Source: a virus. Taken from it: a DNA stretch of 64,000 nucleotides. The stretch is from IMG/VR virus record IMGVR_UViG_3300044995_000220. One strand, given 5' to 3'. Below are positions 1,384 through 29,067 of the stretch, one piece after another. Positions within the stretch are counted from its first letter, which is position 1, and each line of letters begins with the position of its first letter. The position numbers and the translations under genes were made by a program. The notes below the pieces were generated by a model, which had not been told where the DNA came from, made no database searches, and saw only the letters and a program-made list of their open reading frames with translations.

Positions 1384-1568
1384 TGTATAGAAGAATATGT
1401 CGTTAGCGTGTGACGATATTAACACACAGCGCTAAGGACGACAGCGTTGTGCATGCGGTGTGTAGCACCTAGTAACATAGCAGGCGCACCGACACGCAAT
1501 GCACTTCGAAGTCGATTTTTGTCAAGTGTTCTGTTTTTATCGAACACGTTGTATGCATTACTTACGTA

Positions 1569-3306: not shown

Positions 3307-4745
3307 TACGCATCACGCCCTTTTGCGTTTTGGATGAATTTTTCAGTTTCAGCCATCAAACGGATTGTCGCAAAATCTAGTCCGGATCCGTGCATTTTTG
3401 CCATAGTTGCTTGCCGAAGAAAGCTGCGAGTTGCTGATGGATTTTTAGCGATTGACGGCGCAAAATTTTTGAGTGTGTCGTATGCATCGATCAATCCTTT
3501 AGGATTTTCACGATATTCAGCTTGGAGCATGTCGTCACTTTCTAGTGCTTTTTGGAATGCTTCGCGGTGTTTTGGATCATCGAAAAACTTTTTCTTGAGG
3601 ACTTTATGAACGGCGTCGATTGGTTCTCCTACAAATTTTTGAGCAAGCTGGTTGGCCAGCGCCTGGGCCATGGCGTTCTGCATTAGAGGATAGACTTGTG
3701 TAGACGCTGCCTGCTTTTCTTCAGCGAAGTCATCGTAACTGGCGTATACAGACATTGTTGGCATAGGTGTCGTCATGTCGTACGCCGCGTTGTTCATGTA
3801 ATCTTGTATGCGGGCGTCCTGTTCAGCGGCAGTTGGTCCTCCCCGAAGTAGAGATGAGCCGAGCGCGAGACCACCAACGGTTAGTCCGATTGGTAATGCA
3901 TTACGCTCGATCCAACCTGGTTCAAGCGTTGAACTATAATTATCTGGGATTTCGGTCGCAGCTACGTTTTGTTGCGCCTGGTGTGAAGTTTGAGTAGTGG
4001 GTGTTGAAGTTTGAGTAGTGGGCGTTTCGGGAAGTGCGGGAGTTTGAGCAGTAGATTCTACGGGAGAAGTGGGAGTTTGAGCAGTAGATTTTGCGGAAGG
4101 AGTGGGAGTTTGAGCAGTAGATTTTGTGGGAAGAGGAGTGGGAGTTTGAGTAGCAGGTTGTGCGTTATGTGATGTGTTAGATGCCGTAGAGGTTGATGCT
4201 TCCTGAGGAGTACGAGTTGCTGGACGCGCCCGGTAATGTGCAGGTACTTTGTGTCCCTGCATTTTGAGGTACTCTTCAGGCGTCATATTTGAGTAATTGT
4301 TACGCCACGCGCGTCGATTAGCGAGTAGTCCATGCTGTCGCGCAAGTTGCGCAGCATTACGTAATTCCTGCTCTTCTCGCTGTAGCCTTCGTAATTGTGC
4401 GACGGCTTTATCGGCTGCGCGCACTGCGGAGAATTCTTGTTTTGCTCCGGCTAGTGCGCCGCGCAAGCGTTCGCTCATACGCGCAAAAAAACCAGGACCT
4501 CTTGCACCAACACCGACGCCTTGTGCGACGTTCGTTGTCAGTAGGCCTTTACGTGGTAGTGCGCCATGAGTATGCAGCGTATTGATTGCACGTTGGAGTG
4601 CTGCACGTGTTTTTTGGTTGCGCGCTGCTTCTGCCGCACCTTGACGAAATCCGCGTAGACCTGCGGCGATTTGGTGAAAAATATTGGCGTTTTTTTCTAG
4701 GTTAGCGTCAATGTATGAAAGTACTTCGTTAGTAATGTTATCCAT
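3306..4745 (-). CDS. Putative virion internal protein with basic N-region, Thr/Pro linker and one hydrophobic helix
   Basis: 479 aa ORF; Arg/Ala-rich N-half, STAQTP repeats, LPIGLTVGGLALGSSLL segment, helical C-domain. Confidence 0.6.
   Translation of the reverse strand: MDNITNEVLSYIDANLEKNANIFHQIAAGLRGFRQGAAEAARNQKTRAALQRAINTLHTHGALPRKGLLTTNVAQGVGVGARGPGFFARMSERLRGALAGAKQEFSAVRAADKAVAQLRRLQREEQELRNAAQLARQHGLLANRRAWRNNYSNMTPEEYLKMQGHKVPAHYRARPATRTPQEASTSTASNTSHNAQPATQTPTPLPTKSTAQTPTPSAKSTAQTPTSPVESTAQTPALPETPTTQTSTPTTQTSHQAQQNVAATEIPDNYSSTLEPGWIERNALPIGLTVGGLALGSSLLRGGPTAAEQDARIQDYMNNAAYDMTTPMPTMSVYASYDDFAEEKQAASTQVYPLMQNAMAQALANQLAQKFVGEPIDAVHKVLKKKFFDDPKHREAFQKALESDDMLQAEYRENPKGLIDAYDTLKNFAPSIAKNPSATRSFLRQATMAKMHGSGLDFATIRLMAETEKFIQNAKGRDA
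3988..4155. repeat. Degenerate in-frame tandem repeats (STAQTPT / TQTSTP linker)
   Basis: Recurring gggagtttgagcagtagatt and gaagtttgagtagtgg units in the 3306-4745 CDS. Confidence 0.85.
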
Positions 4746-9146: not shown

Positions 9147-9160
9147 TGGGAAGAGCTCCT

Positions 9161-9204
9161 AAAAAATAAACGCCTACCGCTAAAGTATACGGCGGTAGGC
9201 GTTT
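9161..9204 (-). terminator. Putative intrinsic terminator (13-bp stem, 11-nt loop, T-tract)
   Basis: aaacgcctaccgc (9168-9180) pairs with gcggtaggcgttt (9192-9204); followed on minus strand by ATTTTTT; downstream of 9260-10219. Confidence 0.65.
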
Positions 9205-9259
9205 TGTCATAGATTCAGTTTTTGTTTTGATTATGTCTACGTTGTTTTAGCACCGAAAG

Positions 9260-10219
9260 TCACTCTTCTTCTTCTTGTGTGTTTTGATTGTGCTCCCTGA
9301 TTGCGTGTTCTTTGATTGCGTCCAGAGACTTAGACATTGTTAGAGCACCTATCGGCGCGCCAATTGCCATGCCAATACCGTGTCTTTTGAGTCCGCTAAT
9401 AAGTGGCTTATTATGGCGATAGATTCCACGTGCCACTCGTTTTGCCTTTCCTTTAATTTTTGCGGCTGCGCGTCCGATAGCTTTGCCTACGCTACGAGCT
9501 TTGTTTTTTAGACTTTTCAATGTATCTTTTGCCGCTGCAACTTTTGGATTAATTAGGACATGGTCTTCGTCATCGACGTTATAGTCATCATCGATTAGTC
9601 CATGTTTAGCAAGTACATATTCGATTGCTGCAACAAGCGCAGGGTCTGGTTCTACTCCATGTTCTTGATGCGTATCTAGTACATGATCAAGTGTGTTGTC
9701 GAGTTCTTCTGCTGTTTTTACGTTTTCAATGATATCAACCATTACTTCAAGGCCAGGTGTGCCACTGTCAGCTAGAGCTGCTGATGCAAGTACAAGTTTT
9801 GGTGTTACAGGTGCATTTCGATTGGCAAGGTTTTCTACAAACATCGCAGCACGCGCGATTTTTTCACCTGTTTCCTCATTATTCAAATTTTCAGTAGCAT
9901 CTCTCATTTTTTTTCTGTGAGCAGCGTTGCTTTCTAGAGCTTTGCTAAAAGCATGACTGAAAACTAGATCACTACCTAGCGTTGCGCCGATTACTACCCC
10001 AGGACCGTGTCTTCTAGCTGCGCGCAGAAGTGATTTACCTAATGAGCGTGACTTCTTATTAACTTTTGATGCTGCGCGGCCTAAGGCTTTACCCGCAGCG
10101 CGCGCTTTGTTTTTAATAGTTTTCAATACATCTTTTGCAGCTGCTTCTTTTGGGTTGTATGCAGCGTTATAGATGTCGTAAAAGTACGGCAGTCTGGAAT
10201 TTTGAGTAATCCATGACAT
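9260..10219 (-). CDS. Modular head-operon protein, paralog of 10334-12514
   Basis: Basic/Gly-zipper - acidic module - basic/Gly-zipper; shares EKIARA...PVTPKLVLASAALA...VKTAEELDNTLDHVLD with its neighbour. Confidence 0.85.
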   Translation of the reverse strand: MSWITQNSRLPYFYDIYNAAYNPKEAAAKDVLKTIKNKARAAGKALGRAASKVNKKSRSLGKSLLRAARRHGPGVVIGATLGSDLVFSHAFSKALESNAAHRKKMRDATENLNNEETGEKIARAAMFVENLANRNAPVTPKLVLASAALADSGTPGLEVMVDIIENVKTAEELDNTLDHVLDTHQEHGVEPDPALVAAIEYVLAKHGLIDDDYNVDDEDHVLINPKVAAAKDTLKSLKNKARSVGKAIGRAAAKIKGKAKRVARGIYRHNKPLISGLKRHGIGMAIGAPIGALTMSKSLDAIKEHAIREHNQNTQEEEE

Positions 10220-10265
10220 GGTCGGGGTGTTCCTCGTTTTAGTACATTGGGGTTATTTTATTAAA

Positions 10266-10305
10266 ATGAATGCCTGTTACTATGCATACTATAACAGGCA
10301 TTCAT
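10266..10305 (-). terminator. Intergenic hairpin, possible terminator (14-bp perfect stem, 12-nt loop)
   Basis: atgaatgcctgtta (10266-10279) pairs with taacaggcattcat (10292-10305); short T-run after it on the minus strand. Confidence 0.5.
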
Positions 10306-10333
10306 ATTCGGTGAAATAGTTGTGAATGTAGGA

Positions 10334-12514
10334 TCATTCTTGGCGCAGCTGCGCAATGTAACCTGCCCGCAGTTCTTCAGGCATACCAGCAAGTGCAATT
10401 ACGTGAGCACGTTTTTCTTTTTGTGACATCGTTGCAGGGAGTAAACCACCCCACTTTGCGGCCGCAGCTTTTACTTTTTCTTCAAAGTTTACGCGTTTAT
10501 TGTTACGCGCATTTAGCAAAGCGCCAACTTGCCCGACATTTGGCATATCAGTTTCACCGTTGTCTGTGATGTATTCGTCGGGTTCGCGATTTTCTTTGTC
10601 GAGTTCAGCGTTGGCATTGTATTCCGCTGCATCTTCAAGTGTATTTTCGTCCACTTCATTCAGTGAACCGTCTGCTGCTGCTTTCAACACTTCGAGAAGC
10701 TGTGCTTCTTTTTCGTATTCGTTTTCATCGAACTCTTGCTCTTCTTGGTCCGCGCCTCGATTATGCAGAGCATGCATTGCAGCAGCACCGCCAGCTGCGC
10801 CCAGAATTGCACCAACAGCGGCTCCAGGACCATGCCTCTTGGCCGCTCTTCCGACTGCCGCTCCAGCCCTAGCTGCTTGTCTCTTAACCTTTGAAGCTGT
10901 CGTTCCTAGGGTGTTTTTAGTCTTAATTGCTGCACGTCGGATTGCTTTACTTGCGCTACGTGCAGCGCTTCGAATCTTCTTCATTACATCCTTTGCAGCG
11001 GCGACTTTTGCGTCGTCGTTTTCATCAGGTTCATAGTCATTGTCTTCATCAATCAAACCTCGATCTGCGAGTTCTTGTGCGACCGCAGAAACAAGTTTTG
11101 TATTTGGTTTAGCGCCATGCTCTTCTTGTGCATCCAGTACGTCATCAATAGTGTTGTCAAGTTCTTCAGCCGTTTTTACGTTTTGCATAATATGCGCCAT
11201 TACTTCGAGGCCAGGAGTACCTGCCTCGGCAAGCGCTGCTGACGCAAGAACAAGCTTTGGCGTCACAGGTGCTTCGCGATTGGCGAGACCTTCTACGAAC
11301 ATTGTGGCGCGCGCGACTTTTTCAGCTTCCTCTGAAACATCTTCTTCTACATCTTGGTCCACGTCCCGATTATGCAAAGCATGCATTGCAGCAGCACCGC
11401 CAGCTGCGCCCAGAATTGCACCAACAGCGGCTCCAGGACCATGCCTCTTGGCCGCTCTTCCAACTGCTGTTCCAGCCCTAGCTGCCTGTCTCTTAACCTT
11501 TGAAGCTGCCGTTCCTAGGGTGTTTTTAGTCTTAATTGCTGCACGTCGGATTGCTTTACCTGCGCTACGTGCAGCGCTTCGAATTTTCTTCATTACATCC
11601 TTTGCAGCGGCGACTTTTGCTTCGTCGTCGCTGTCATAGTCACTGTCATCGTCACTGTCATCGTCGTAATCCTCATCAATCAAACCGTGATCCGCGAGTA
11701 CCTGTTCAATCGCTGCAACGAGCTCTGGATCAGGTTCAACGCCATGCTCTTGTTGTTTATCTAGTACGTGATCAAGAGTGTTATCGAGTTCTTCGGCAGT
11801 CTTTACGTTCTCAACAATGTGGGCCATCGTTTCAAGGCCAGGAGGACCCCCTTCAGCAAGCGCTGCTGACGCAAGAACAAGCTTTGGCGTCACGGGTGCT
11901 TCACGTGCAGCGAGGTCTTGAATAAACAGCACAGCTCGCGCAATCTTTTCACTCGATTGTTTATCTAAGTGCGTGAGGCTGTTGTCGATCGCGGGGCCTT
12001 TCGGAGCCATTGGGTGAGGAATTTGCCTACCGACTACACCGCCTTCAGGCATGTCGGTGTTACCTGCGCCTACAAGGTATTGGAGCGACGATCGATTTTC
12101 TTCGTCGAGATCAGCGAGTGCGTTAGTTTCCGCTGCGCTCTCTAGCGTGTTAGGTCCAGTATCGTTTAGTGACGCTTCTTCTGCGGTTTTGGCCATCATG
12201 TAGGAGGCAATTTTCATTGCTCGCTCTTCTAACGGCATATAGGATGCCTGCTTTGCCATCGCTTGGACCGAGGCGGAGGGCCCATAGCCGCGCCTTACTG
12301 CCTCATCTGATGCGTCGATGAGCCATTGGCCGATCTTGATGTAGGCATCGTTCGGCAGCGGTCCTTCTAGGATCTGTGGTAGGCCGAGGTCAGTTGAAAT
12401 TTTATCGAAGACTCCGATGGCGAGGTCGTCATCTGCAAAAGGCGCCATGCGTCCAGCATCGGACATGCCGTCAGCCATGCCCTTGAGAAATGTGCGAGTA
12501 AATAGAGTTGACAT
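10334..12514 (-). CDS. Modular head-operon protein with internal 609-bp duplication
   Basis: 726 aa; two tandem copies of acidic module plus basic Gly-zipper module; similar N- and C-terminal motifs (SLN..NTLE.AA..NA...LD.ENR...Y...G.TDMP). Confidence 0.88.
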   Translation of the reverse strand: MSTLFTRTFLKGMADGMSDAGRMAPFADDDLAIGVFDKISTDLGLPQILEGPLPNDAYIKIGQWLIDASDEAVRRGYGPSASVQAMAKQASYMPLEERAMKIASYMMAKTAEEASLNDTGPNTLESAAETNALADLDEENRSSLQYLVGAGNTDMPEGGVVGRQIPHPMAPKGPAIDNSLTHLDKQSSEKIARAVLFIQDLAAREAPVTPKLVLASAALAEGGPPGLETMAHIVENVKTAEELDNTLDHVLDKQQEHGVEPDPELVAAIEQVLADHGLIDEDYDDDSDDDSDYDSDDEAKVAAAKDVMKKIRSAARSAGKAIRRAAIKTKNTLGTAASKVKRQAARAGTAVGRAAKRHGPGAAVGAILGAAGGAAAMHALHNRDVDQDVEEDVSEEAEKVARATMFVEGLANREAPVTPKLVLASAALAEAGTPGLEVMAHIMQNVKTAEELDNTIDDVLDAQEEHGAKPNTKLVSAVAQELADRGLIDEDNDYEPDENDDAKVAAAKDVMKKIRSAARSASKAIRRAAIKTKNTLGTTASKVKRQAARAGAAVGRAAKRHGPGAAVGAILGAAGGAAAMHALHNRGADQEEQEFDENEYEKEAQLLEVLKAAADGSLNEVDENTLEDAAEYNANAELDKENREPDEYITDNGETDMPNVGQVGALLNARNNKRVNFEEKVKAAAAKWGGLLPATMSQKEKRAHVIALAGMPEELRAGYIAQLRQE
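10759..11950. repeat. Intragenic direct duplication, offset 609 bp (203 aa)
   Basis: Blocks 11368-11620 and 10759-11011 are nearly identical at DNA level; the upstream acidic modules are also similar. Confidence 0.9.
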
Positions 12515-12547
12515 AGGTGAAGGTGCTCCTTGGCTCTAGTGTGTAGT

Positions 12548-13225
12548 CTAAGTTGTTTGAGACGATTCGTCAGTGTTAACAGTTTTATTGAGTGGAGAGC
12601 GGCTCTTCCACACACGCATTAGGTGCCGTGGCACATTGAGTTCGAGGTTTTCAGGTGTTGGTGGAGGAGCAAGCTTTGGATCAAACTTTGAACCAACGTA
12701 GCGTGCAGCACCTTGCACTGCGCCTTGTACTGGGATGCCAAGCAAGCCTAGGCGCGCTGTGAAGGGCGCCACTACCATACCTGACACCGCATGCGCAATA
12801 TCGCCACGTCGTGTCGCTGGGTCTCCTTGTAATATAATGTTACCAAGTTCTAGTGCTGGCATGCCAAGTGATAGCGCTTTCACCCATGTCGGAGACCCAG
12901 GTGAAAGATAGAAATCTTTGATTTGTCCTCCTATTGTGCGCGCGAGGCTACCTGTACGCTTGTAGCGCTGGGACAGTTGTTGCGCTAGGGTGATTGGGCT
13001 GCCGAAGATGGCTTCTCGGCCAAATTCAGCGACGTGTTTACCGAATGTTTTGAGTTTATTTGAAAAGCCGCGACCAGCAGGCGCTATTTTGTGCTCACGA
13101 AATAGGTCCTTTAGACCGTATCGGCCAAAAATGCGCGAGCGCGCTGCTGTCTTTACGGTGTTTAGGCGTTCTTCGAAGTCAGAATGTACCACTGGAACCA
13201 TGACGGAATTCCGCGCCGTAAGCAT
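12548..13225 (-). CDS. Hypothetical head-operon protein, basic with hydrophobic C-terminal helices
   Basis: ORF 12548-13270 in track; ATG at 13225 (or 13201) reduces overlap with the upstream RNAP gene; start uncertain. Confidence 0.65.
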   Translation of the reverse strand: MLTARNSVMVPVVHSDFEERLNTVKTAARSRIFGRYGLKDLFREHKIAPAGRGFSNKLKTFGKHVAEFGREAIFGSPITLAQQLSQRYKRTGSLARTIGGQIKDFYLSPGSPTWVKALSLGMPALELGNIILQGDPATRRGDIAHAVSGMVVAPFTARLGLLGIPVQGAVQGAARYVGSKFDPKLAPPPTPENLELNVPRHLMRVWKSRSPLNKTVNTDESSQTT

Positions 13226-14984
13226 ATGCTGGTACGGGATGTGTGCTGTGAATGTTTGAAGTTTCACCAAAATGTGCGGCTTCTAGGATTGTATTTTTGA
13301 GATAACGGTGAGCAAGACGCGCCATCCAATCCTTTTCTAACAAAGGATTCATAGTAAATGGTTTCATTACGAATTCAACTGGGGGCATGCTGCGATTGAT
13401 GTAAACCTCAGTTACGCCATGTGAGGCTAGTTCTCGTGCTAGAGCAGGCGTAATAAGAGTACCAACGGTATGATGCAGCACTTCTTGTCCAAGTCGCTGT
13501 CCGACAGCATTATCTAGCGGTACGCGCGTTGATCCTTCGCGATAGGCTTCGCGAAAGGCGTTATAGTTGATAATGTCGCCTTTTAGTAGTTCAGGGTGGT
13601 TTGGATCTGTGTCAAGTAGACGTACATGATTAATTTCACTTTTTGCAAGTAGTTCGAGATGACGTCGATCAAGATTAATGCCCTCGTTTTTGTAGAGGTT
13701 GTGCATTGCGTCAACAAAATACGCGCGTCCAGCACCGAGGCCTTTATATCCGACTATTTTTGCAGGATGAGGCACGCCATCGGTTAGCGCGTCACCGCGT
13801 TCAACCACGTCACCTTTTTTTACACGCAATGTTAGGTCAGGATGGGTATATACTTTCTTTTCGCCAATATAGATGTAGTGCCCTCCTTGCGGGGCTTTCT
13901 CAATTTTCGTTATAGTTCCATGCTCAGGAGCGAGAACTGCTTCATGTCGAAATGATGCGGGCACTTCTAATAATTGGCGTACACCTTTTAGTCCTGTTGG
14001 AAATTTATTCGTTGATTTGATTGTAAGTGTACCGTGACGTGATGAAAGCGCCATCTGTGTTAACGGTTCAGCCATAGCTTGCGCGGCTCGTACGCCGACA
14101 GGCGTACCTATTTGGTGTAATTTTCCTTTTTCATTGTGCCCTTGGCACATTTGGCAAACACCGCTTTGAGCGATGCACGTCATAGGTGAGCGTACAAGTA
14201 GACGATCAACATGTTTGGCTTTTAGTTGTTGAACAATCTGTGGCGTGACTAGAGTATTGCGGGGTAAACCATGATCAGCCTGTGTAAATCGGTCTAGGAT
14301 ATGGCTGTCATCGATTGACATCTTTACGCCGTTCATGGTTCCGCAGTCAGTTGTCGTCACAACAGTGGAAATAGTGTTTGCAACGAGTACTTTGGCCATT
14401 TCGCCAGGCTCCGATACTGAAATGCGAGCCTTAACTTCGTTTTCGCGGATTTCTGGGCCAGTCATCCAGTACTGCGCTGGAGTGAGTCCTTCGGCGTAAG
14501 ATCGATCAATTAGTTGGTGAATCACGCCATGTTTAGGGTGCACTGTTGCAAGCGGCGTTGCGACAATTTTCATAAGTTGGGCTGGATTCCCGCGCGCGCC
14601 AGATAATGCCATATGTGTCATTGAACCGGGGTGTTTTTTAGTATGAGCGAGTAGTTTCTCTTGTGTTTCAACAATCAATCGTTGACGCGCTGTTGGGTCT
14701 TTGAGTTTTTCAAGTTTTGCAAGTGCGGGACGAATGATAGCATCACGTTCTTTGTAATTAGGCTCGATGTCGTCTAAACCGACGGAAATTCCTTCAAGCG
14801 TTGCAATTTCGTCCCCACGTCGTTTAAGTGCTTGTATTGTTGAAACGTATTTTTGTGGGTCAGTTTTGGCAAGATTGACAAGATGGTCATGTAGTTCTTT
14901 GTTTGTAATTGGGCCACGGATTTCGTAGCCCTTAGGCATTACATCATTGATTAAAAAATGTCCAACTGTCGTCGCCATAGGCAA
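13179..14984 (-). CDS. rpoC: RNA polymerase beta' subunit, C-terminal half (RpoC2-like)
   Basis: SGARGN, bridge-helix region YAEGLTPAQYW...PGEMAKVLV, DCGT plus SPMTC...GVCQMCQG zinc site, trigger loop GVRAAQAMAEPLTQMALSSRH, GLKGVRQLLE. ATG at 14978 is the likelier start. Confidence 0.93.
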   Translation of the reverse strand: MPMATTVGHFLINDVMPKGYEIRGPITNKELHDHLVNLAKTDPQKYVSTIQALKRRGDEIATLEGISVGLDDIEPNYKERDAIIRPALAKLEKLKDPTARQRLIVETQEKLLAHTKKHPGSMTHMALSGARGNPAQLMKIVATPLATVHPKHGVIHQLIDRSYAEGLTPAQYWMTGPEIRENEVKARISVSEPGEMAKVLVANTISTVVTTTDCGTMNGVKMSIDDSHILDRFTQADHGLPRNTLVTPQIVQQLKAKHVDRLLVRSPMTCIAQSGVCQMCQGHNEKGKLHQIGTPVGVRAAQAMAEPLTQMALSSRHGTLTIKSTNKFPTGLKGVRQLLEVPASFRHEAVLAPEHGTITKIEKAPQGGHYIYIGEKKVYTHPDLTLRVKKGDVVERGDALTDGVPHPAKIVGYKGLGAGRAYFVDAMHNLYKNEGINLDRRHLELLAKSEINHVRLLDTDPNHPELLKGDIINYNAFREAYREGSTRVPLDNAVGQRLGQEVLHHTVGTLITPALARELASHGVTEVYINRSMPPVEFVMKPFTMNPLLEKDWMARLAHRYLKNTILEAAHFGETSNIHSTHPVPAYAYGAEFRHGSSGTF

Positions 14985-15010
14985 AGACTACGTGTTCTCA
15001 GTGGCGCATG

Positions 15011-15349
15011 TTATTGTTGAAATGAGGCTCTTTGCCCTGCTCCGAACACTCGACCTGCACCATATGCTGCTGCGCCAGTGGCTGCCGCAGCGCCGAGAGC
15101 TTTGCCCGCAGCCGGCAAACCACCTGCTCGCTGAAACGCCTTAGCACCAGCTGCAATGCCTTTACCAAGATTTTGCATCATACCGCCGCGTCCACGCTGA
15201 TATGCTTTGGCACCAGTAGTCCATGCGCGTGTTGCTGCGTTGCCGAGTGTAGAAAGTACGTTACCAATTTTATTCAGGCCGTAAAGGGTCAAGATTTTAT
15301 AAGCTCCACGTGCTCGTGCGTTATCAAGTGCTTTTTTCGTAAGCATCAA
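15011..15349 (-). CDS. Small basic Gly/Ala-rich protein
   Basis: 112 aa; cationic amphipathic segment followed by GKALGAAAATGAAAYGAG hydrophobic stretch. Confidence 0.7.
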   Translation of the reverse strand: MMLTKKALDNARARGAYKILTLYGLNKIGNVLSTLGNAATRAWTTGAKAYQRGRGGMMQNLGKGIAAGAKAFQRAGGLPAAGKALGAAAATGAAAYGAGRVFGAGQRASFQQ

Positions 15350-15729
15350 ACTCCTCCGTACGAAATGTTAGGACTTAGCCCGTTGCGATCACCAGGTTCA
15401 TTTGGTAACCCCATAGAGGCACCCCAAATTGGATCACCTGTCCGTTTTGGGGTTATTGGAGTGTCACCGTAGCCAAAATTATTTTCAGAGAAAAGTTTAG
15501 CAAGCGCTTCGATTGGTTCACCAGACTCATCAAGCAGAGCGTATTTAGTAGCAACTTTGCGGATTGCACGCGCTCTAACTTCGTTAGCAAATTTTTGTCT
15601 TGCAGCAGTGTTGAAGCTTTTTGTTACGCCGTAAAAGCCTGGGTCTTTTTCGAAGTGAAAGCCTCTTTGACGTTTTTTTAGTCGTGTAGTTATGCCGCGT
15701 ACAATGTTATTTAAATCTGCCATCAGCAT
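15346..15729 (-). CDS. Hypothetical protein (127 aa)
   Basis: Fills operon gap with overlapping start/stop codons. Confidence 0.7.
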   Translation of the reverse strand: MLMADLNNIVRGITTRLKKRQRGFHFEKDPGFYGVTKSFNTAARQKFANEVRARAIRKVATKYALLDESGEPIEALAKLFSENNFGYGDTPITPKRTGDPIWGASMGLPNEPGDRNGLSPNISYGGV

Positions 15730-16208
15730 CCACTCCGAAGGTAGCGGCGCATATCGTCAGCGTGCTGTTGATCTATGAAGGCACCTTCTTGTGCTAAGGC
15801 GTTGAGTGCTACGTCATTGGTAGTTGCTCGGAATAGCTCTGACCATTTAGCTACAACTTCAAGTTCCATAGAGAGTAGTGTTTTGAATACCGCACGAGGG
15901 TCATTTAGTCCGACAATCGCTGGAGGTGACGGATTGGCGTGTGCGTCTGCGCCAAGCGCTGTGATCTTCTTGTTCAATTTATATATAGATTCACGCTCTT
16001 CTTTGATGTGGTCTTGGAAATGTTGGTAGATCCCGTCGCGATAAAACGCTCGTAACTGGTCGCCGTAGTGAATGTACGCAAGTAGTAACGAATACTTCTT
16101 TGTTAGAATGTCCTGGAGGCGCGAGACATGCGCGCACATTGCTGGCGTGGCGTTTTCAAAGGACTTTGATTTTGTAGGGTCAAGTAAGTCATCTAAGAAG
16201 TCGAACAT
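15723..16208 (-). CDS. Ferritin/bacterioferritin-like four-helix-bundle protein (degenerate ferroxidase centre)
   Basis: LLAYIHY...FQDHIKEERESIYKLNKKITALGADA...LLSMELEVV...IDQQHAD follows the Bfr pattern (QY..H / EE..H / RI..LGG.P / E / EE.H) with several ligands changed. Confidence 0.7.
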   Translation of the reverse strand: MFDFLDDLLDPTKSKSFENATPAMCAHVSRLQDILTKKYSLLLAYIHYGDQLRAFYRDGIYQHFQDHIKEERESIYKLNKKITALGADAHANPSPPAIVGLNDPRAVFKTLLSMELEVVAKWSELFRATTNDVALNALAQEGAFIDQQHADDMRRYLRSGC

Positions 16209-16221
16209 TAGAGTCCTCGTT

Positions 16222-19200
16222 TTAGTTATTTACGCCTGTCAGCAACTCTGGCGGAAAATAGAATAAGGCTTCGTCAGGGCTAATGGAATAAACTGGCGCA
16301 GTGAGGTGTGGTCCTTCACTATAGTTATCAGCGCGCTTTTCGGTTTCGTTTTCAATTTCGATAGCGTCTGATAGCTTCAATTCGCCACGTCGATATGCTG
16401 CGAGTGCGTCTTCTCTCGTTTTGAATTTGCGCACTGGTCCAGTAGGAATTGTGTGTTTTGATGCGAGCGTGAATGCGATGATAGCTTCGTGTTGCGGAAA
16501 GACCATAAGTTTGTTCCGTTGTTGATCACTTAACAATAGGTTGCTAAGAGTCATTTGCTTAGCTTCTTGCACAGCTTCAGGACCGATTGGGAAGTGTACC
16601 TGCAAAGTGTCACCGTCGTAGTCTAGGTTCATACCTTTTTCGGCGAATGAGGACACGCGTATTGTTTTGCCGGGTACGGGTTTAGCGTACGCAGCGATAA
16701 TCGACCCTCGATGCAGTGTGGGCGCTCGATTGATAAGTACTGGGCGCTCGCGAATTTCTTCCAACAGCGCATTTCGCGCGGCAGGCGCGCGTTCATTGAC
16801 TAGTTCACGCGCTTGGAGCGCAGGGTAACCGGTGCGGATCAACCGCGCGACAATTAGTTTGTCAAGTGCCTGCCACAGCATATCCTCCGGAATACCAACT
16901 TCGTCCATACTCAAGTTTGAATCGGGTACAGCAGTACCACGTCCCGATACATCTTGTGTATGACGCATTAGCTTACGCTGGAAAAAACCTCCTTTTGGTG
17001 TACCGACGCCTGAAATATTTGCAAGTAAGCCTTTAACTTTCTGTTGTTGAAGTTTTGGGTCGCGAGGCAGCGCTATACCATATAGCTCTTCGACTTTTTC
17101 GTAGAGATCCAAACGATGTTTGCCTAAATCTGATGGTACAGCTGTTGTCTTCAGCGTTTTGTTCGAATCAAGAAGTTGACTGTAGAGTTTATTTACGTCG
17201 GATACCATTAGTTGCGACGGATCGTGAACGCTTGGCAAAATTGGACGGAATACTGGAGGAATGACTGGTACCTTGCTGATCACGTAGGCGTCGGCGGGGT
17301 TTAAATTATGCTTTTGAAGTGCTTCTAAGTATTTGATTTGCTTGACTACATCGTCGAGCGCAGCTCCTTTGGCGGTTTTGAGCTGTTCACGTAGTTCACG
17401 AAGTTTACGCGGTACATCGATCTTCGAGAGTTCATGGCGAAACCATGCACCCCCGTTAGTTCGCAGTGCGGTCCTGAATTGTGTTTCAGTCATGCCGAGC
17501 AGACGGCGTACGGGCTCTTCGAATACAGGATTTGGGATAGGCTCGTGCAAATCAATATGAGAAAAAAGTGCGCCTTGTAGACCGCCGGTCTTACGAGGAT
17601 CAAATAGACCGCCGGGCATTGGTTTGAGATCTTTCGCGCGCACCGTTGTGTTATTTTCGATTGCTCCCGAACTGCGCGTTAGCACATCTTTGTCAGTCAT
17701 TGGTAGTAGCGAGAATTTTGAACCACGCTTATCTACCTTTACGCCTGCGCCTTCTAGCATTCCAATAAACTTATTGAAGGCAAACGATGGCTTTGGTTCT
17801 GGTAGCGGCAATCCCATTTGCACGGCTTTCCAATATTCATCGTTCTTTTGACCACGAACTGTTGTTGCTTCGCGCAGAAAGCTGCGTGCGTTGTGTGCGA
17901 GCAGCGCATCAAATTCCATTTTACCGATGCTTTTAGCGCTTTCGTCTCCCCCAGTCTTGAGAGGCTGTTCGTTGATGTCATAGGGTCCGACACCGTGACC
18001 AGAGAAATTGGTGTCAGTACTTTTGAACAGTTTATAAATATACTGTTTACCGACTAGTACGCCTTTGCTGTCGGGCCCAATAATTTTACGTTTGAGTATT
18101 GGATCGTAGAGTACTTCTTTGTCTTTGACGCCGTGTTTGTTCAGTAGGTCACGGGCCCATTTGACAGCGTCATGGCCTGCCGTGTTGTCATATACGATTG
18201 GTTTTCCTGTTTTTTCAGCGACTTTTGAAACAGCTGTTTCAATAATTTGCGCGGGGTTGATACGTGATACGACTCCGGCCGACGTCATTAACAGATCAAG
18301 TGGACGCCCTTGTTCATCACGCAGCATTTCGTGGTCTGGTACGATTTTGGCGACGACACCCTTATTACCGTAGCGACCTGCGAGCTTGTCGCCAATTTGC
18401 ATAGGTTCGCGTGTTTTTACAAGGATTGTAATTTGTTTATTTGAGCGTACTACATCGATAATTTCACCAGGCACACTGTGTTCCCAAGTCAGTGCGATGT
18501 CTTTGAATGGTTTGACAAGTGATTTACTAAGACGCCCAAGTATGGCGTCGGTACCAGTTACAGATTGTTTCATTAGGCCCGCTACAAGTAAGTCTTTCGG
18601 ATCAACTTTTGTGCCTTTTTTGATTACACCGCTCTCATCGAGTTTACTGTACATTGACGCGGGGTATTTAGCACCGTAGTAAAGTTGATGCTTTGCACGG
18701 TTCAGTTCGGTGCCCGTACTAATCGGAAAAACCTCGCGATACATGTGTTCGCTGGTTAGTTTTCGCGCTGCGGACTCCGAAATTACGACGGCATCGTTTG
18801 AGTTGTAGCCGTAGTACGGTAAGTATCCAACGAGTAGATTTTTGCCTAATGCAAGCACACTGTTACGCGTGTAGTTTGACTCTGCAAGGCGCTGACCTTC
18901 TTTAACTTTGTCACCAGGCTTTACGCTGACAGTGTGATCTAGGAACGTTTTCGAAGGAAACGGAAATTTTTGATAGTAGGGCACCTTAATGAGTCCAGCG
19001 TCGCCTGCTGCTGCTCGTTTTTCAGCATGTGGCTTAATGTATATGAATTGATTGTCGATCTTCGCGACGGTCCCCGAAACCGGTGCAGTCGGCACGATCA
19101 TATGGCCATAAATTGTTTCAAATGAATGGCCATCTGGATGATGTGATTTAACTTGCACAAGTGGTGCTTCGCGCTCCACGAGCGGCAACGCTTGCGTGCC

Positions 19201-20730
19201 CATCTTGGATCCCATGATCGCGCGGTTACCTTGGATTGAGTGGATCAATGGGATTAGCGTTGTTGCTGGTGAGTACATGTACTTGACGTGATCAAGTTGG
19301 TGTGTCACCTGACTTGCAGGTACACGTGTTTGTTTGCCATTGACGAATGCGTCGACTGTGCCTTTGAGTTCTTGGTGAGGAAACGCAACGACATATTTGT
19401 GCAAGTCGCCAGCTCGTATAAATTCCTCTTTACCAGTCTTTACATTGCGTAGTACTGTGTAGAGGTTACCTTTGTCGTCACGGTGCGCGGCAATTGTTGC
19501 CCGAATATCTACACCTGAGTGGTTTGATTCAGGTGTGCGAATTGGATCCAGTGCACCAAAGTGCGTGTTGTGGATCATGCGCGCGTCCAGGGGGATTGCG
19601 CGGTCTGAGGGAATTCCGCCTTCACCGAGACTCGTCACTTTCACTGCGTGATCGATGATTTCCATTGGATTGATTCCCATGGGAACGCTAGAAAGTGACG
19701 ATGTTGTGACGAACTTACGGATTGCATCCGAGAACGGCGCAGGTTTAAGGGCGTCTCGGATTACGTTTTTGTTTGTTAGTGCTAGTTTTGCTTTAGGTAT
19801 CCATTGACGAGAGGACAGACGAATTCGTTCTGAGATGAAATCATCAAGCGCATGAAATGTTTTGAATTTTAGTGAGTCAGTGTCATCAACTTGCGCTTTG
19901 CCAGCATGGACATCGAGTATTTTCTTCGCAGCGCTAAGCAGCGTCTCAGGTGCGACCTTAGTGTGCGCAGAACCAAGTGTTTCGCTCGTTACTTCAGGAT
20001 CAAGCGTTGATTGGTTATAGTGCTTTTTGATAGCTTCGACTTTTGCTTCATGTGACGCGTTTGGATCCAGCACAGCTGGATGCTCTAGCTTTGTGTAAAG
20101 CTTGTTAATTGTTGGCGCAATTTGGTGTCCGTACTCTTTTTCATTGGCGCGCGCTACGCCTTCGCCTAAGTGCTTAGCAATTTGGCTGTGCTCAACGCCA
20201 AGGCCTCGCAATACGGCGTAAAGAGGCAAATTTGACGTACCATATTGAAGGTAGAATGTTCCTTTATCAGGATTAAATGTGAGATTGAAGTTTTTTCCGC
20301 GCCCGAGGTTGAATACTGTTTTGAGTTCGCCGTTGTCAGCTCGCTGGGTGTAAACTCCCGGTTTGCGGCGTAATTGGTTTGCAATTTGATATTCGTTGCC
20401 ATCTACGATGATGGTGTGGCGCGATGTTAAGTACGGTATGTGCGCTAGCGTAAAGTTTTTTGCTTCGTCGAGAATTTTTCCGTTTGCGTCTTTAAGTACA
20501 AGTGTGCCTTTGACTGGTTCATAAAGTGATGAACCTTTCATAAGTGCGTTGTATTCGTCCGATGGTGCAAAATCTTGTGAATTTACACGTACATCTTTGA
20601 TTTCCAGCGTTTTACCCTTGAGTTCAAGGGGGAAAACAGTAGTTAACGCCTTAGTTGTCTTTTCGTGCAGTTTTTGGCGAAGTGTAGCTGCGCTGGTCAG
20701 TACGGGCGTTGGTGCACTCATCTCAATCAA
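16222..20730 (-). CDS. rpoB: RNA polymerase beta subunit fused to N-terminal half of beta'
   Basis: beta motifs: IIVDGNEYQIANQLRRKPG, INPMEIIDH..VTSLGEGG, HFGALDPIRTPES, NRAIMGSKM, GYNSNDAVVISE, GDKLAGRYGNKGVV, SRIN, GKMEFDALLAH. From about 17730: beta' motifs GGLFDP, PVIPPVFRP, SDVNKLY, VLINRAPTLHR, NLDYDGD. ATG at 20721 is the likelier start. Confidence 0.95.
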   Translation of the reverse strand: MIEMSAPTPVLTSAATLRQKLHEKTTKALTTVFPLELKGKTLEIKDVRVNSQDFAPSDEYNALMKGSSLYEPVKGTLVLKDANGKILDEAKNFTLAHIPYLTSRHTIIVDGNEYQIANQLRRKPGVYTQRADNGELKTVFNLGRGKNFNLTFNPDKGTFYLQYGTSNLPLYAVLRGLGVEHSQIAKHLGEGVARANEKEYGHQIAPTINKLYTKLEHPAVLDPNASHEAKVEAIKKHYNQSTLDPEVTSETLGSAHTKVAPETLLSAAKKILDVHAGKAQVDDTDSLKFKTFHALDDFISERIRLSSRQWIPKAKLALTNKNVIRDALKPAPFSDAIRKFVTTSSLSSVPMGINPMEIIDHAVKVTSLGEGGIPSDRAIPLDARMIHNTHFGALDPIRTPESNHSGVDIRATIAAHRDDKGNLYTVLRNVKTGKEEFIRAGDLHKYVVAFPHQELKGTVDAFVNGKQTRVPASQVTHQLDHVKYMYSPATTLIPLIHSIQGNRAIMGSKMGTQALPLVEREAPLVQVKSHHPDGHSFETIYGHMIVPTAPVSGTVAKIDNQFIYIKPHAEKRAAAGDAGLIKVPYYQKFPFPSKTFLDHTVSVKPGDKVKEGQRLAESNYTRNSVLALGKNLLVGYLPYYGYNSNDAVVISESAARKLTSEHMYREVFPISTGTELNRAKHQLYYGAKYPASMYSKLDESGVIKKGTKVDPKDLLVAGLMKQSVTGTDAILGRLSKSLVKPFKDIALTWEHSVPGEIIDVVRSNKQITILVKTREPMQIGDKLAGRYGNKGVVAKIVPDHEMLRDEQGRPLDLLMTSAGVVSRINPAQIIETAVSKVAEKTGKPIVYDNTAGHDAVKWARDLLNKHGVKDKEVLYDPILKRKIIGPDSKGVLVGKQYIYKLFKSTDTNFSGHGVGPYDINEQPLKTGGDESAKSIGKMEFDALLAHNARSFLREATTVRGQKNDEYWKAVQMGLPLPEPKPSFAFNKFIGMLEGAGVKVDKRGSKFSLLPMTDKDVLTRSSGAIENNTTVRAKDLKPMPGGLFDPRKTGGLQGALFSHIDLHEPIPNPVFEEPVRRLLGMTETQFRTALRTNGGAWFRHELSKIDVPRKLRELREQLKTAKGAALDDVVKQIKYLEALQKHNLNPADAYVISKVPVIPPVFRPILPSVHDPSQLMVSDVNKLYSQLLDSNKTLKTTAVPSDLGKHRLDLYEKVEELYGIALPRDPKLQQQKVKGLLANISGVGTPKGGFFQRKLMRHTQDVSGRGTAVPDSNLSMDEVGIPEDMLWQALDKLIVARLIRTGYPALQARELVNERAPAARNALLEEIRERPVLINRAPTLHRGSIIAAYAKPVPGKTIRVSSFAEKGMNLDYDGDTLQVHFPIGPEAVQEAKQMTLSNLLLSDQQRNKLMVFPQHEAIIAFTLASKHTIPTGPVRKFKTREDALAAYRRGELKLSDAIEIENETEKRADNYSEGPHLTAPVYSISPDEALFYFPPELLTGVNN

Positions 20731-20758
20731 AATTTAAAGACAATACGTGGTAAAAGTT

Positions 20759-20784
20759 TTTAGCGGGGTTTTGTGTCCGCTAAA
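20759..20784. other. Intergenic hairpin upstream of RNAP gene (8-bp stem, 10-nt loop)
   Basis: tttagcgg (20759-20766) pairs with ccgctaaa (20777-20784). Confidence 0.5.
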
Positions 20785-20871
20785 GGAGGTGAGAGTGACG
20801 TGCTAATACGCGCGGTTTTTCGTTTTGTCATTTTTGTTGCGCGGTGATTGTGATAATGATTGCTGCGCACT

Positions 20872-20909
20872 TCGGGGTGTGCCGTGGTTACAACCGCGGC
20901 ACACCCCGA
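20872..20909. other. Near-perfect 38-bp palindrome over the stop codon of 20888-21298
   Basis: tcggggtgtgccgtggtt-ac-aaccgcggcacaccccga: 18-bp arms with one mismatch/wobble. Confidence 0.85.
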
Positions 20910-21298
20910 GAACGAATCCGCGCTTCATTTTGCGTTACTTCGGGTTCTTCCCACGCGATCGTAACGTAGATTTCACCTCGATCATTTGAAAATTCGCGTG
21001 CGTGTAGTTTCCAGGGCCCTGCATCGCCTGCGTTTCGCAGCCGGTTTATTAGTTCAATATACTCGTTGTGCCGCGTGTGTGGACAAATGTAATCGCCTTG
21101 TTCAGGTAATAGTTCAGGTCGTTCTTGAATTGCATCTTTGCAACGATTACAACTGTTCCAAGGCCGAAACACTGAGTATGTTTCGTGAAAAACTTTCATC
21201 CGGCGCGGGGGTTCTTCCGCCGGTTCTGAAAAGCCTATACGTGGTCCTCGGATAGTCTCTTCGTGTTTTGCTTGTTGTGAGTTCATCCAGTCTTCCAT
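20888..21298 (-). CDS. Hypothetical protein with putative Zn ligands
   Basis: 136 aa; CNRC and CPH..H motifs; directly downstream of the portal gene. Confidence 0.7.
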   Translation of the reverse strand: MEDWMNSQQAKHEETIRGPRIGFSEPAEEPPRRMKVFHETYSVFRPWNSCNRCKDAIQERPELLPEQGDYICPHTRHNEYIELINRLRNAGDAGPWKLHAREFSNDRGEIYVTIAWEEPEVTQNEARIRSRGVPRL

Positions 21299-21299
21299 T

Positions 21300-23021
21300 T
21301 CAACCCTGCGCCTTCATGTAAGCCAATTGGTTTTGCTCTATTTGTTGTAGCAATTCTTTTGTGATGCAGTACATAATGAAGTCTTCGCCTTTGAGTGAAT
21401 CAAGCCGTGAACGCCTTGTACCTGCGTCGTATTGTGCTAGTTCTTCAGCGATTGGTTGTGCTTTGGCGATGATTGCCTGTTGATCGTACGCGAAACTGCT
21501 CCGCGATTGAAGCGCTTGTTGCTGTGCTTGTATTGAAAGTGATTGTTGAAGTTTTTGAAGTGCAACTTGGGTTTCTTGTTCAGCCCGAGTGTCGGCTAGA
21601 GTATCTTCGCGTCGCTGTTTACGTTCATGATCAAGATCAATGTCAAGCATTTCTGCCATTGTGGTGTTCGAAATTAGTTGGCTTTGCCATAGTTGAATTT
21701 TGAGTTGTTTATTTTCGATGTCGTCAATCATTTTGAAATCAGCAAGGCGCATTTTGATTGACGCCCAACCCATGAATTGTGCAACTTTGCGTTCAATCCA
21801 CTGGATGAGTGCGTTGAGATTTTCAATATGTGTTTGTAGTTGGTTTTCAATCATTCGCAATGTGATTTCACCTCGGGTTTGCCCAAGACCCCCTGTAAGA
21901 AACTCCATCGGTACGCCGAGTGAAAGTACAATTGCTCTTTCAGCTTCTTGTAGTTCGCCGAGAGTGAGCAACGCACGACCTTCACCGCCAATGTTCTGAA
22001 CGCCGACAGGTACAGGCGAAAATTGAATACGTAGCGGATCTCGACGGAACAATCGCCAGTTACGTTCCATTTCCATTTTCCAACGATCAAGTGGAATGGT
22101 CGTAATAGGGTCTCCTTGTCCGCTAGCCGCTATTGGATGGATGATTCTAAATGGTGTGATGTATTCGAGTGCAATCGCTTCATTTGCTCGTCGAAGTATT
22201 GCTGTAAAGAGGAAATTTTTAATTGCACTCGTGATTGGAGGAAATCCCCATTGAGCTTGTACACCAGCAGGTCCTGGCATTTTTAGATGATAAAGTGAAC
22301 CTTCATCAAATCGAAAAGTCTTGCGCTCTTGCATTGCGCGCAAGATCTCCATCGGCATGTGATTGATGAATGTTTTGTTGCCGGCTCGCACCTTTGCTAT
22401 GTCATCGCGTGGGATCTGGTAGTAATAGACACTTTCGCCAGTGACTCGGTTGTGTTCAATGTCAATTAATTTTGGATCCCATCGAATTAGTGTGAGCTTA
22501 GTAGGGTCTTTGAGTTTGTAGTCTTCAACCTTTGAGATCACACCTTTGCGTTTACACTGCTTGCAGTCGTGCGTGAATTGAAGTTTCGGGAGATTGAATT
22601 TGTATGATGCCGCTGAGATGTCTTCTCGTGTGCCGCAGTACTCACATACCAGTTCGCGTTTGATCGGCTCATAAACTGAAACGAACGCGTTGCCATATAG
22701 CCAGACGTCGTAGCTTACTAGCGTTAGAAAGCCTTTGAGTCGTAGAGTTTCTTCGAAGAGTCTTTTGTGGCGCGCTTTTTCTTCATCCGAATTCGATTCG
22801 TAAATGAATCGTGTGATTGGGTATTCGCCGAATTTACGGACTACGCCGTAAATATGCGCTGAATGGAATCCAAGGTATTCTGCCCATTTGAACAGGTCTT
22901 TGAGCTTCCGAGGTACAAACCCCGTTAAGTAGTCAAACATGGGGTTCGCATGCGACATCGCATGACGTCCTCCGAAACCCAGCAGCATATCGTCATAGTT
23001 CACTCCGCTGTCGATGGTCAT
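21300..23021 (-). CDS. Portal protein
   Basis: VWLYGNAFVS, WGFPPI, ALEYITPFRII, LGVPMEFL patterns typical of phage portals; CEYC/CKQC zinc-ribbon insertion; Gln-rich C-terminal helix. ATG at 23021 preferred over GTG at 23048. Confidence 0.8.
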   Translation of the reverse strand: MTIDSGVNYDDMLLGFGGRHAMSHANPMFDYLTGFVPRKLKDLFKWAEYLGFHSAHIYGVVRKFGEYPITRFIYESNSDEEKARHKRLFEETLRLKGFLTLVSYDVWLYGNAFVSVYEPIKRELVCEYCGTREDISAASYKFNLPKLQFTHDCKQCKRKGVISKVEDYKLKDPTKLTLIRWDPKLIDIEHNRVTGESVYYYQIPRDDIAKVRAGNKTFINHMPMEILRAMQERKTFRFDEGSLYHLKMPGPAGVQAQWGFPPITSAIKNFLFTAILRRANEAIALEYITPFRIIHPIAASGQGDPITTIPLDRWKMEMERNWRLFRRDPLRIQFSPVPVGVQNIGGEGRALLTLGELQEAERAIVLSLGVPMEFLTGGLGQTRGEITLRMIENQLQTHIENLNALIQWIERKVAQFMGWASIKMRLADFKMIDDIENKQLKIQLWQSQLISNTTMAEMLDIDLDHERKQRREDTLADTRAEQETQVALQKLQQSLSIQAQQQALQSRSSFAYDQQAIIAKAQPIAEELAQYDAGTRRSRLDSLKGEDFIMYCITKELLQQIEQNQLAYMKAQG

Positions 23022-23048
23022 TGCGTCTCTAACCGAAAGAAGTAACAC

Positions 23049-28154: not shown

Positions 28155-28979
28155 TTAACTAAGTATATCTGCGAGGCTCTTGATCTCTTCTTCAGAGAGA
28201 TGAGCTCGTAGACGATTGAGAGCGCGTTTTTGTATTCCTTCCACGCGCGCGGCAGTCATTTGTGAACCGTCGATCTCGTACAGGATCTGACCAATTGTCC
28301 GCGCGTCTTTTGGCTCACCTCCGCGAAGTCCAAACGCGTAGATCAATACTAGCCGCTCAACTCGCGTTAGCTGTGCTTGCGCTAGTAGGGCTAGGGGGTC
28401 TACGCGTCGGCGTTGAACGTCGCTTTCGATGTCGACGTTGTCATCTATAATTACAACGTTGTCAATCGACGCGATTGAAGGTTCTTCGAAGTCTTCGACG
28501 GGCTCACCGAGTACTTGCTTTCTTTCTTTTTCGACACGTGTGCGCCGCATCGCTTTCCGGGTGTGGTTTGGAACGTGAACCGTTCGCATCCGGTAAATGA
28601 CTTCTTGCATTTTTACATTGACCCAGTTCGCTGCGTACGTGAGAAAGCGATTACCGCGCGCAGGGTCAAATAGCGTGATTGCATGGAGTAACCCTTCATA
28701 GCCTGCCGAAAGCAGTTCGGCGAACAATGCGTCGTCGTGCGCTTTGCGCCTCGCTTGTTTGATTACAAAACGGTAGTAACCACTTGCGATCGCATTGCGC
28801 AACGTATCACGCAGTTTTTGGAACTGCTCACGTTCGACTGGGTTGGTCGCTAACTCTGCACGTGTTCGTGCTTCTTGGTATGCTGTGAATAGAGTATGCT
28901 CCTCTTGCGCCGTTCGGATGGGATGGTTGCCCACATCGCGGAAATGCAGATCTAGCAGCGCGCTCGTTGTCTTAGACAT
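28155..28979 (-). CDS. RNA polymerase sigma-70-family factor (sigma 1)
   Basis: Region 1.2-like LHFRDVGNHPIRTAQEE, region 2 GLLHAITLFDPARGNRFLTYAANWV, region 4 RVERLVLIYAFGLRGGEPK. ATG at 28979 preferred over track start 29051. Confidence 0.88.
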   Translation of the reverse strand: MSKTTSALLDLHFRDVGNHPIRTAQEEHTLFTAYQEARTRAELATNPVEREQFQKLRDTLRNAIASGYYRFVIKQARRKAHDDALFAELLSAGYEGLLHAITLFDPARGNRFLTYAANWVNVKMQEVIYRMRTVHVPNHTRKAMRRTRVEKERKQVLGEPVEDFEEPSIASIDNVVIIDDNVDIESDVQRRRVDPLALLAQAQLTRVERLVLIYAFGLRGGEPKDARTIGQILYEIDGSQMTAARVEGIQKRALNRLRAHLSEEEIKSLADILS

Positions 28980-29067
28980 TTTGCTAAAATCTTTACATAG
29001 CGCCAGACACAGGGTAAACCAACTATCTGCTGTGACTGGCGCTTCAGTCACTTACAAGGAGAGCATC

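Follow-up and report, generated by a model that had tools for sequence, protein, structure and literature searches.

The viral DNA described here is a window of 64,000 nucleotides (nt), taken in reverse complement from positions 34492-98491 of a 123,104-bp virus record in IMG/VR (IMGVR_UViG_3300044995_000220) that is estimated to be ~71% complete. Its block of head genes contains the genes for a multisubunit RNA polymerase (RNAP) and a prohead protease, and we examined how the two may be connected. The phage is uncultured and comes from a hot spring; the sequencing runs that match the record are all of DNA and carry hot-spring or microbial-mat metagenome labels. The lineage, with genomes of ~180-190 kb, is widespread and mostly uncultured. 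Its nearest isolate is Salmonella phage Arash, for which LC-MS (mass spectrometry coupled to liquid chromatography) has been carried out on sucrose-gradient virions (PMC10585845).

RNA polymerase genes in the head block

The head block runs along the minus strand in the order portal homologue, a 136-amino-acid (aa) open reading frame (ORF), fused RNAP, ferritin-like gene with two small ORFs, a second RNAP gene (β′C), eight further genes and the protease (Table 1). Among the eight genes between β′C and the protease are counterparts of gp218 and gp220, two proteins of the Arash virion. Beyond the window start, the protease is followed by small acidic proteins and then by a 307-aa major capsid protein (MCP). 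The fused RNAP is found two genes downstream of the portal homologue, and the order portal, small ORF, fused RNAP, β′C and gp218-like gene recurs in Arash and in IMG/VR relatives with as little as ~45% identity; the portal homologue was upstream of RNAP in 12 related loci. A preliminary description of this DNA, which had placed co-oriented RNAP genes between portal and protease, is confirmed on this point. It had also assigned two RNAP genes to positions 16222-21298. One of them is the fused RNAP, but the 136-aa ORF is not RNAP, and β′C lies outside that interval.

Pfam families matched the 1502-aa ORF (probable start, ATG at 20721) first with β domains, namely Rpb2_6 (PF00562, E 1.7e-44), Rpb2_3 and Rpb2_2, and then with the β′ domains Rpb1_1 and Rpb1_2 (PF00623, E 2.7e-20). 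The β hybrid-binding domain motif GDK..GR.GNKG is found as GDKLAGRYGNKG, and the β′ catalytic loop, NLDYDGD for the consensus NADFDGD, retains all three aspartates, with the C-terminus of the protein following ~100 aa later. By its Rpb1_5 match, β′C carries the C-terminal half of β′ (Rpb1 domains 4/5, with the bridge helix and trigger loop). Its N-terminus reads MATTVGHFLINDV, which we take to correspond to ..TTVGRAIL.. of Escherichia coli β′, that is, to β′ continuing after its surface hairpin. Identity to the Arash proteins Gp206 and Gp216 is 36% for the fused RNAP and 30% for β′C. Read from the translations, the enzyme is both fused (β with the N-terminal part of β′, β′N) and split (β′N from β′C), and consists of two polypeptides. 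Cellular precedents are the rpoC1-rpoC2 split of cyanobacteria and plastids and the rpoBC fusion of Helicobacter; here, fusion and split are combined, and on our reading of the sequence the split point is earlier than in cyanobacteria. In a relative with 34% identity, β, β′N and β′C form one uninterrupted ORF of ~2100 aa (L020:~9760-16111), with no portal gene in the 10 kb upstream. Many members of the fused-RNAP homologue set (1790 sequences at E<=1e-10) are 1800-2600 aa long and contain homing-endonuclease or intein-type domains (PF14528, PF05204), which suggests frequent intein invasion of this gene.

We detected PF00562, PF00623 and PF04998 at one locus only in the phage's own 123-kb record, which is ~71% complete. 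The complete Arash genome has a single PF00562 (β) match, a search that did not include the β′ families, and no α subunit was found in either. The second RNAP set that the preliminary description had envisaged looking for thus did not emerge. Two sigma factors are encoded, one of 232 aa related to Arash Gp10 (29% identity, E 6e-25) and one of 298 aa related to Arash gp196 (BLASTP E 4e-13). The single RNAP set shifts the model from a switch of polymerases to a probable switch of sigma factors.

Table 1. Positions of the genes, sites and non-coding elements discussed in the text (window coordinates unless prefixed L003)
Feature	Position	Strand	Basis or remark
Fused RNAP subunit, complete β + β′N through catalytic loop, 1502 aa	16222-20730	-	Pfam, Arash homology
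Catalytic Mg-binding loop NLDYDGD of β′	16609-16629	-	Translation, inside Rpb1_2 match
Hypervariable β loop HAEKRAAAGDAGLIK, with site 1 K-R-A at 19012-19020 (K571-R-A573)	18985-19029	-	Candidate protease site
Site 2, K-R-A (K1465-R-A1467), β′N body/tail junction	16330-16338	-	Candidate protease cleavage site
35-aa acidic C-terminal tail	16225-16329	-	Tail alignment; candidate removable propeptide or docking peptide
RNAP β′C, 601 aa, ATG at 14978	13179-14984	-	Pfam Rpb1_5 (PF04998), E 5e-16
Prohead protease, gp21-like domain + long C-terminal extension, 635 aa	1-1383, past window start (L003:110-2017)	-	Model, PHROG
Protease site A, K-R-A	1273-1281	-	K-x-A in 109/110 homologues, fixed N-terminal point
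Protease site B, K-V-A	628-636	-	K-x-A at domain end in 106/113 homologues
183-aa acidic scaffold-like protein adjoining protease	L003:2042-2593 (beyond window start)		11 K-x-A
Sigma factor, 232 aa, baseplate/hydrolase operon	60624-61322	-	Pfam Sigma70_r3 above cut-off
Second sigma factor, 298 aa, replication module	28155-29051	-	Pfam Sigma70_r2 above cut-off
Conserved non-coding spacer before RNAP gene, 157 nt (166 nt to ATG)	20731-20887	-	Six-relative alignment
Conserved 136-aa ORF, CxxC...CPH, not RNAP	20888-21298	-	In relatives too, flanked by portal and RNAP
Portal protein homologue, 582 aa, first gene of head block	21300-23048	-	33% identity, E 6e-92, to Arash gp204
Ferritin-like protein	15723-16208	-	Pfam Ferritin, E 1.6e-10

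Virion proteins of Arash and the K-x-A motif

The homologues of both RNAP polypeptides are prominent in Arash virions. Gp206 (fused β–β′N) gave 3516 spectra and 128 unique peptides, at the top of all virion proteins, while Gp216 (β′C) gave 1210 spectra and the sigma factor Gp10 gave 467 (PMC10585845). The other sigma factor, gp196, does not appear in the virion mass spectrometry table or text (PMC10585845). Our arithmetic on the published table gives ~2.0-2.3 spectra per residue, a crude measure, for Gp206, Gp216 and Gp10, against 1.5 for the portal. These data show virion presence for the Arash homologues only, at 36% identity to the fused RNAP here.

The protease of the head block matched the PHROG family ‘head maturation protease’ (E 4e-10). 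Its N-terminal 240 residues were modelled by AlphaFold2 (AF2) with a 36-sequence alignment at a predicted local distance difference test score (pLDDT) of 81, compared with 39 for a single-sequence model. The model superposed on T4 gp21 (5jbl_B) with Z 12.4 and a root mean square deviation of 3.0 Å over 147/164 residues, and on herpesvirus proteases with Z 5-7. We conclude from the predicted structure that the protease has the T4 gp21/herpesvirus fold. H130 (in HHVNKD) and S181 (in SMGC), invariant in 36 diverse homologues, are candidate catalytic residues. A profile search of the protease alignment against PDB sequences returned nothing useful. The ~240-aa gp21-like domain is followed by a C-terminal extension of ~385 aa with further K-x-A tripeptides, a layout that recalls the herpesvirus protease–scaffold fusion.

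K-x-A marks both ends of the protease domain. The protease family comprises 3188 homologues, from which we took diverse subsets of 110 and 113 for the boundary counts given for sites A and B in Table 1. Site A lies in indel-rich surroundings and usually reads K-x-A-S/F, whereas site B directly follows the last strand of the gp21-like core, in a linker that the model leaves disordered. Adjoining the protease, an acidic protein of 183 aa has 11 K-x-A for 2.4 expected (P ~4e-5), spaced 10-25 residues apart and mostly in the form T-K-x-A-S/E; its sequence makes it a probable scaffold or core protein that is broken down during maturation. Two further small ORFs follow (L003:2779-3159 and 3156-3545) and are also enriched, with 4 and 5 copies, and the enrichment recurs in Arash gp223, gp220 and gp225. 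K-x-A was entirely absent from β′C (3.1 expected), the 232-aa sigma factor and the ferritin-like protein (joint P ~0.006), as might be expected if proteins that have to withstand the protease avoid the motif. K-x-A thus looks like a real protease motif; in the fused RNAP, the signal lies in conserved position and not in number. Herpesvirus proteases have the consensus V/L-x-A↓S, which the alanine at P1 and the frequent serine at P1′ resemble, and we infer that the phage protease recognises K-x-A and likewise cuts after alanine.

Two K-x-A tripeptides of the fused RNAP occupy notable positions. The preliminary description had pointed to EKRA strings in a β loop and before a short C-terminal tail, and both are where it put them: the loop K-R-A at 19012-19020, and EKRAD, which holds the K-R-A of site 2, at ~16327-16341, preceding the 35-aa tail. 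We surveyed the C-termini of 100 homologues, 85 of which have a tail (82 unique). K-x-A lay no more than 12 residues from the end of the body in 80/82 unique tails, whereas shuffled controls averaged 16.5 and never exceeded 26; the next commonest X-x-Y pattern at the junction reached 36/82. P2 is variable (K, T, H or R), and E, A, S or D predominate at P1′. Past K-x-A, the tail consists of a variable acidic linker and then a conserved motif, DEALFYFPPELLTG (16234-16275), which was found in no other protein of the genome. The remaining 15/100 homologues, and Arash, are tail-less and end 0-5 residues after the body. This position is just before K-x-A, right where cleavage would leave the mature end. 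The tail is a candidate capsid-targeting propeptide.

Site 1 lies in a β loop that the preliminary description had called an insertion. That label does not hold relative to E. coli-type β: in a HMMER alignment to solved β subunits, the loop is 8 residues longer than in Thermus and no longer than in some other bacterial β subunits, and it is better described as hypervariable. Its length ranges from 12 to 208 aa among 88 unique homologue loops. K-x-A occurs within the first 12 residues in 70/88 (shuffle mean 25.7, maximum 39), and K-x-[AGS] in 84/88. A second K-x-A, 9-12 residues before the loop end, was found within the last 14 residues of 63/70 longer loops (shuffle mean 22.9, maximum 36). Inserts of 90-208 aa are present in 38 loops, 33 of which have K-x-A on both flanks. 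These inserts are mutually unrelated and include InPase/pyrophosphatase-like, AAA_18 P-loop and glycine-zipper sequences and several unknown ones (P0009, P0014, P0015, P0117 and others). The loop must be exposed, because unrelated inserts are tolerated. In the phage described here, the loop is minimal and has just one K-R-A. At ~50% identity, relatives have the loop motif and no tail, and Arash and the 34% relative have neither.

The string EKRA occurs 6 times genome-wide against 0.75 expected, which is not significant after correction for all 4-mers. A further EKRA, at residue 180 of a 910-aa protein encoded at 6414-9146 (minus strand), was considered as a site and rejected, as it is not conserved in relatives. 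The same protein has ~10 tandem octapeptides DPNAMQNV at residues ~700-780, and a 496-aa protein (1569-3059, minus strand) has APHPPAVQQ repeats.

Flanking genes and transcription units

The preliminary description regarded the RNAP genes as closely coupled to their neighbours. They do share one block with portal and protease, but a regulatory-looking spacer precedes the fused gene, the protease gene is ~12-15 kb away, and terminator-like hairpins lie between the two. In the spacer, one hairpin spans the upstream stop codon and a second is followed by a T-run; phylogenetic footprinting across six relatives revealed conserved blocks, with compensatory changes in both stems. A sigma70-like element, ATGACA-N17-TATTAG, lies at 20803-20831 and occurs once in the genome. 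Three relatives have ~450 extra nt between the 136-aa ORF and RNAP (L009:4388-5022, L011:~9560-10000 and L014:~9542-10000), which marks the spacer as a hot spot for insertions. The terminator-like hairpins, which are strong and have T-runs, lie at 9147-9259 and 10220-10333 (minus strand). Because they follow the 319-aa and 726-aa genes, the ‘head operon’ likely comprises several transcription units. We found no genome-wide promoter motif: CATAATNAA, related words and the spacer element each occur in one or a few places, and a scan for sigma70 elements and terminators gave a count under the shuffle expectation. Near one contig end, a gene-poor region contains four tandem 47-bp repeats with TGACATTGTGG...TGTTTAGTAC, together with arrays of ~40-bp and 11-bp repeats (window-equivalent positions 96858-97040 and 95228-95475; G000:C1 ~1450-3270); a role as promoters, origin or terminus is possible for these arrays.

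The 136-aa ORF matched neither RNAP nor any other family in Pfam or PHROG, gave no lead in an Atlas search and has no similarity to Arash gp205. It is kept in relatives at 26-94% identity and is therefore a real gene. The portal homologue had no Pfam, PHROG or PDB sequence match, and a profile search of its alignment against PDB gave nothing useful; its Arash counterpart gp204 is annotated as portal and was found in virions (PMC10585845). In its longest form, the portal ORF (GTG at 23048) abuts a divergent helicase ORF (ATG at 23049) with zero intergenic DNA, and alignment with relatives suggests that the true portal start is some tens of codons further downstream. The divergent replication block on this side includes the helicase (from 23049), an exonuclease, a ParB-like protein and a sigma factor. 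On the other side, the ferritin-like gene begins 13 nt 3′ of the RNAP gene and is retained in close relatives.

Packaging, processing and alternative explanations

Packaging of the RNAP into the virion is likely on the basis of Arash mass spectrometry, the conserved place of the genes in the head module and conserved K-x-A sites that are tied to a protease of the gp21 fold. Trimming by the prohead protease, which the preliminary description had proposed together with packaging, is plausible from the sequence signatures. If the RNAP meets the prohead protease it must be inside the prohead, which makes the sites a support for packaging that is independent of the Arash proteomics. On balance, we favour, with modest confidence, a model in which the only RNAP of the phage is packed in the virion, where it is trimmed, and accompanies the DNA on delivery. 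The enzyme would enter the prohead already assembled, probably in the company of the 232-aa sigma factor, its genes lying within the head-morphogenesis block. There the protease would act on it, cutting after the alanine of K-x-A as herpesvirus proteases do at their own sites, so that the acidic tail would be removed at K1465-R-A1467 and the exposed β loop probably nicked at K571-R-A573. The processed RNAP would be ejected with the DNA and begin transcription, and the second, non-packaged sigma factor would later redirect the same polymerase species. Late expression, ejection and host-independent early transcription, which the preliminary description also proposed, and a division of early and late promoters between the sigma factors are more conjectural; as to late expression, the private upstream element of the RNAP gene argues for separate control.

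Several observations weigh against packaging followed by trimming. Because the homologues share descent, motif counts among them are larger than the number of independent events that they represent. Bare K-x-A is not enriched in the fused RNAP (11 versus 10.2 expected), and although ~120 homologues and Arash all have K-x-A at MCP residues 28-30, this is weak evidence, as the whole MCP N-terminus is conserved. The packaged Arash RNAP has neither K-x-A site and no tail; the packaging data and the cleavage signatures therefore stem from separate sub-lineages at 36% identity, and cleavage is not needed for packaging. Cleavage itself is a prediction from sequence. The 116 proteins listed for Arash include the non-structural ribonucleotide reductase, ligase and primase, and the authors left open carry-over of abundant enzymes or contamination (PMC10585845). 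Moreover, with its private sigma70-like upstream element, the RNAP gene could be expressed early by host RNAP.

Some of these points bear on whether the packaged enzyme is cut at all. The K-x-A tripeptides might instead be docking or recognition elements, for example for a protease–scaffold or core protein, or structural caps, with the tail staying in place and, for instance, helping β′N and β′C to assemble. The tail does emerge at the β′ split point, as placed by what we take to be the equivalent E. coli β′ sequence, and its conserved aromatic-proline motif is unique in the genome; packaging in Arash needs neither site, and over the fused subunit as a whole K-x-A is neither avoided nor enriched. 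However, the same tripeptide marks the domain boundaries of the protease and is present in 11 copies in the scaffold-like protein, a pattern typical of cleavage and not of docking. Tail-less homologues stop just before the motif, and two motifs bracket unrelated inserts in the loop. We therefore consider an uncut packaged enzyme unlikely. That the two EKRA strings are chance matches to a low-information motif is highly improbable: ~10 K-x-A are expected in a protein of this size and the EKRA excess does not survive multiple testing, but position contradicts chance, as 80/82 tails, 70/88 loop starts and 63/70 loop ends have the motif, where shuffled sequences reach at most 26, 39 and 36.

Packaging itself would be called into question if the RNAP were an intracellular middle or late polymerase, made early by host RNAP from its own promoter and using both phage sigma factors. 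The Arash signal would then be carry-over of an abundant DNA-bound protein, and K-x-A would have another cause. The conserved sigma70-like element and hairpins upstream, which set the RNAP gene apart from the portal, are in keeping with this, as are the replication module beginning 2.3 kb from the RNAP gene and the evident contaminants in the Arash list, for which the authors themselves state the alternative (PMC10585845). Yet Gp206 is the most detected protein, β′C and one sigma factor are present at a matching per-residue level while the other sigma factor is absent, and the placement in the head module is kept across deep divergence. Protease-type motifs in exposed regions of an RNAP are also hard to explain unless it meets the prohead protease. 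We judge an exclusively intracellular role to be improbable, to about the same degree as an uncut packaged enzyme.

Packaging and trimming, our preferred reading, could extend to the loop inserts. It is possible, and we put it forward tentatively, that the β loop with its two K-x-A is a cargo slot and that in this lineage the RNAP also serves as a polyprotein carrier. Unrelated passengers, such as pyrophosphatase-like, P-loop kinase-like, glycine-zipper and several unknown domains, would enter the prohead with it and be excised there by the protease. The same cuts would turn the two-gene enzyme into one of three or four pieces, like the split subunits of phiKZ-like phages, and exchange of sigma factors rather than of polymerases would run the timing.

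The closest parallel is the virion RNAP (vRNAP) of phiKZ, 201phi2-1, SPN3US and AR9, which likewise has β and β′ without α and is housed in the head, from which it is ejected together with the DNA, as proposed here. The vRNAP β gene of phiKZ-like phages is part of the head region, as is the gene for the gp21-like protease, and this protease processes vRNAP β in 201phi2-1 but not in SPN3US, where the enzyme assembles before incorporation; the C-terminal protease autocleavage of phiKZ-type gp21 relatives is conserved (PMC5694885). PhiKZ and AR9 have separate virion and non-virion RNAP sets (PMC7598289), whereas here there is one set, of two polypeptides rather than four or five, in a genome of ~180-190 kb. 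Canonical sigma70-family factors are encoded, one of them present in Arash virions; the inferred motif is K-x-A instead of S/A/G-x-E, and the sequence similarity between subunits is weak. When one RNAP subunit is missing in SPN3US, the virions lack all of the others as well. Arash itself shares the architecture, the gene order from portal through fused RNAP, β′C and protease to MCP, the protease family, and K-x-A at the protease boundaries (K30-Q-A32 and K218-V-A220), near the MCP N-terminus (K27-E-A29) and in neighbouring core proteins. It differs in its 30-36% identity and the short loop of Gp206, which has no K-x-A, and in an inverted gene block that parts its two RNAP genes. A ‘moraphage’ (PMC12619734) that we considered as a member of the same lineage belongs to a different one without RNAP.

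The sequence signatures also bring T4 gp21 and herpesvirus assemblin to mind, with the same fold, predicted P3-x-P1 recognition and autoprocessing at the domain boundary, and a site-rich scaffold-like protein; the herpesvirus scaffold has R and M sites. The RNAP would resemble T4 internal proteins in being cargo that loses a terminal peptide in the prohead. T4, however, cuts after glutamate (L/I-x-E) and its targeting peptides are N-terminal, whereas the candidate here is C-terminal with lysine at P3, and its cargo is an RNAP with an additional internal site.

So far, delivery of a multisubunit RNAP by the virion has been characteristic of phiKZ- and AR9-like jumbo phages, which have two polymerase sets. 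The lineage described here appears to reach host-independent transcription with one fused and split enzyme and sigma factors. Four features plausibly set the system apart: this enzyme with its sigma factors, the K-x-A code, the cleavable tail and the passenger-hosting loop. As K-x-A can be read from sequence, it predicts which head proteins are processed, where the RNAP would be cut and that foreign domains ride in the polymerase loop. If the loop is indeed a cargo slot, its cuts would produce, after translation, the kind of split subunits that phiKZ-like vRNAPs already have in their genes.

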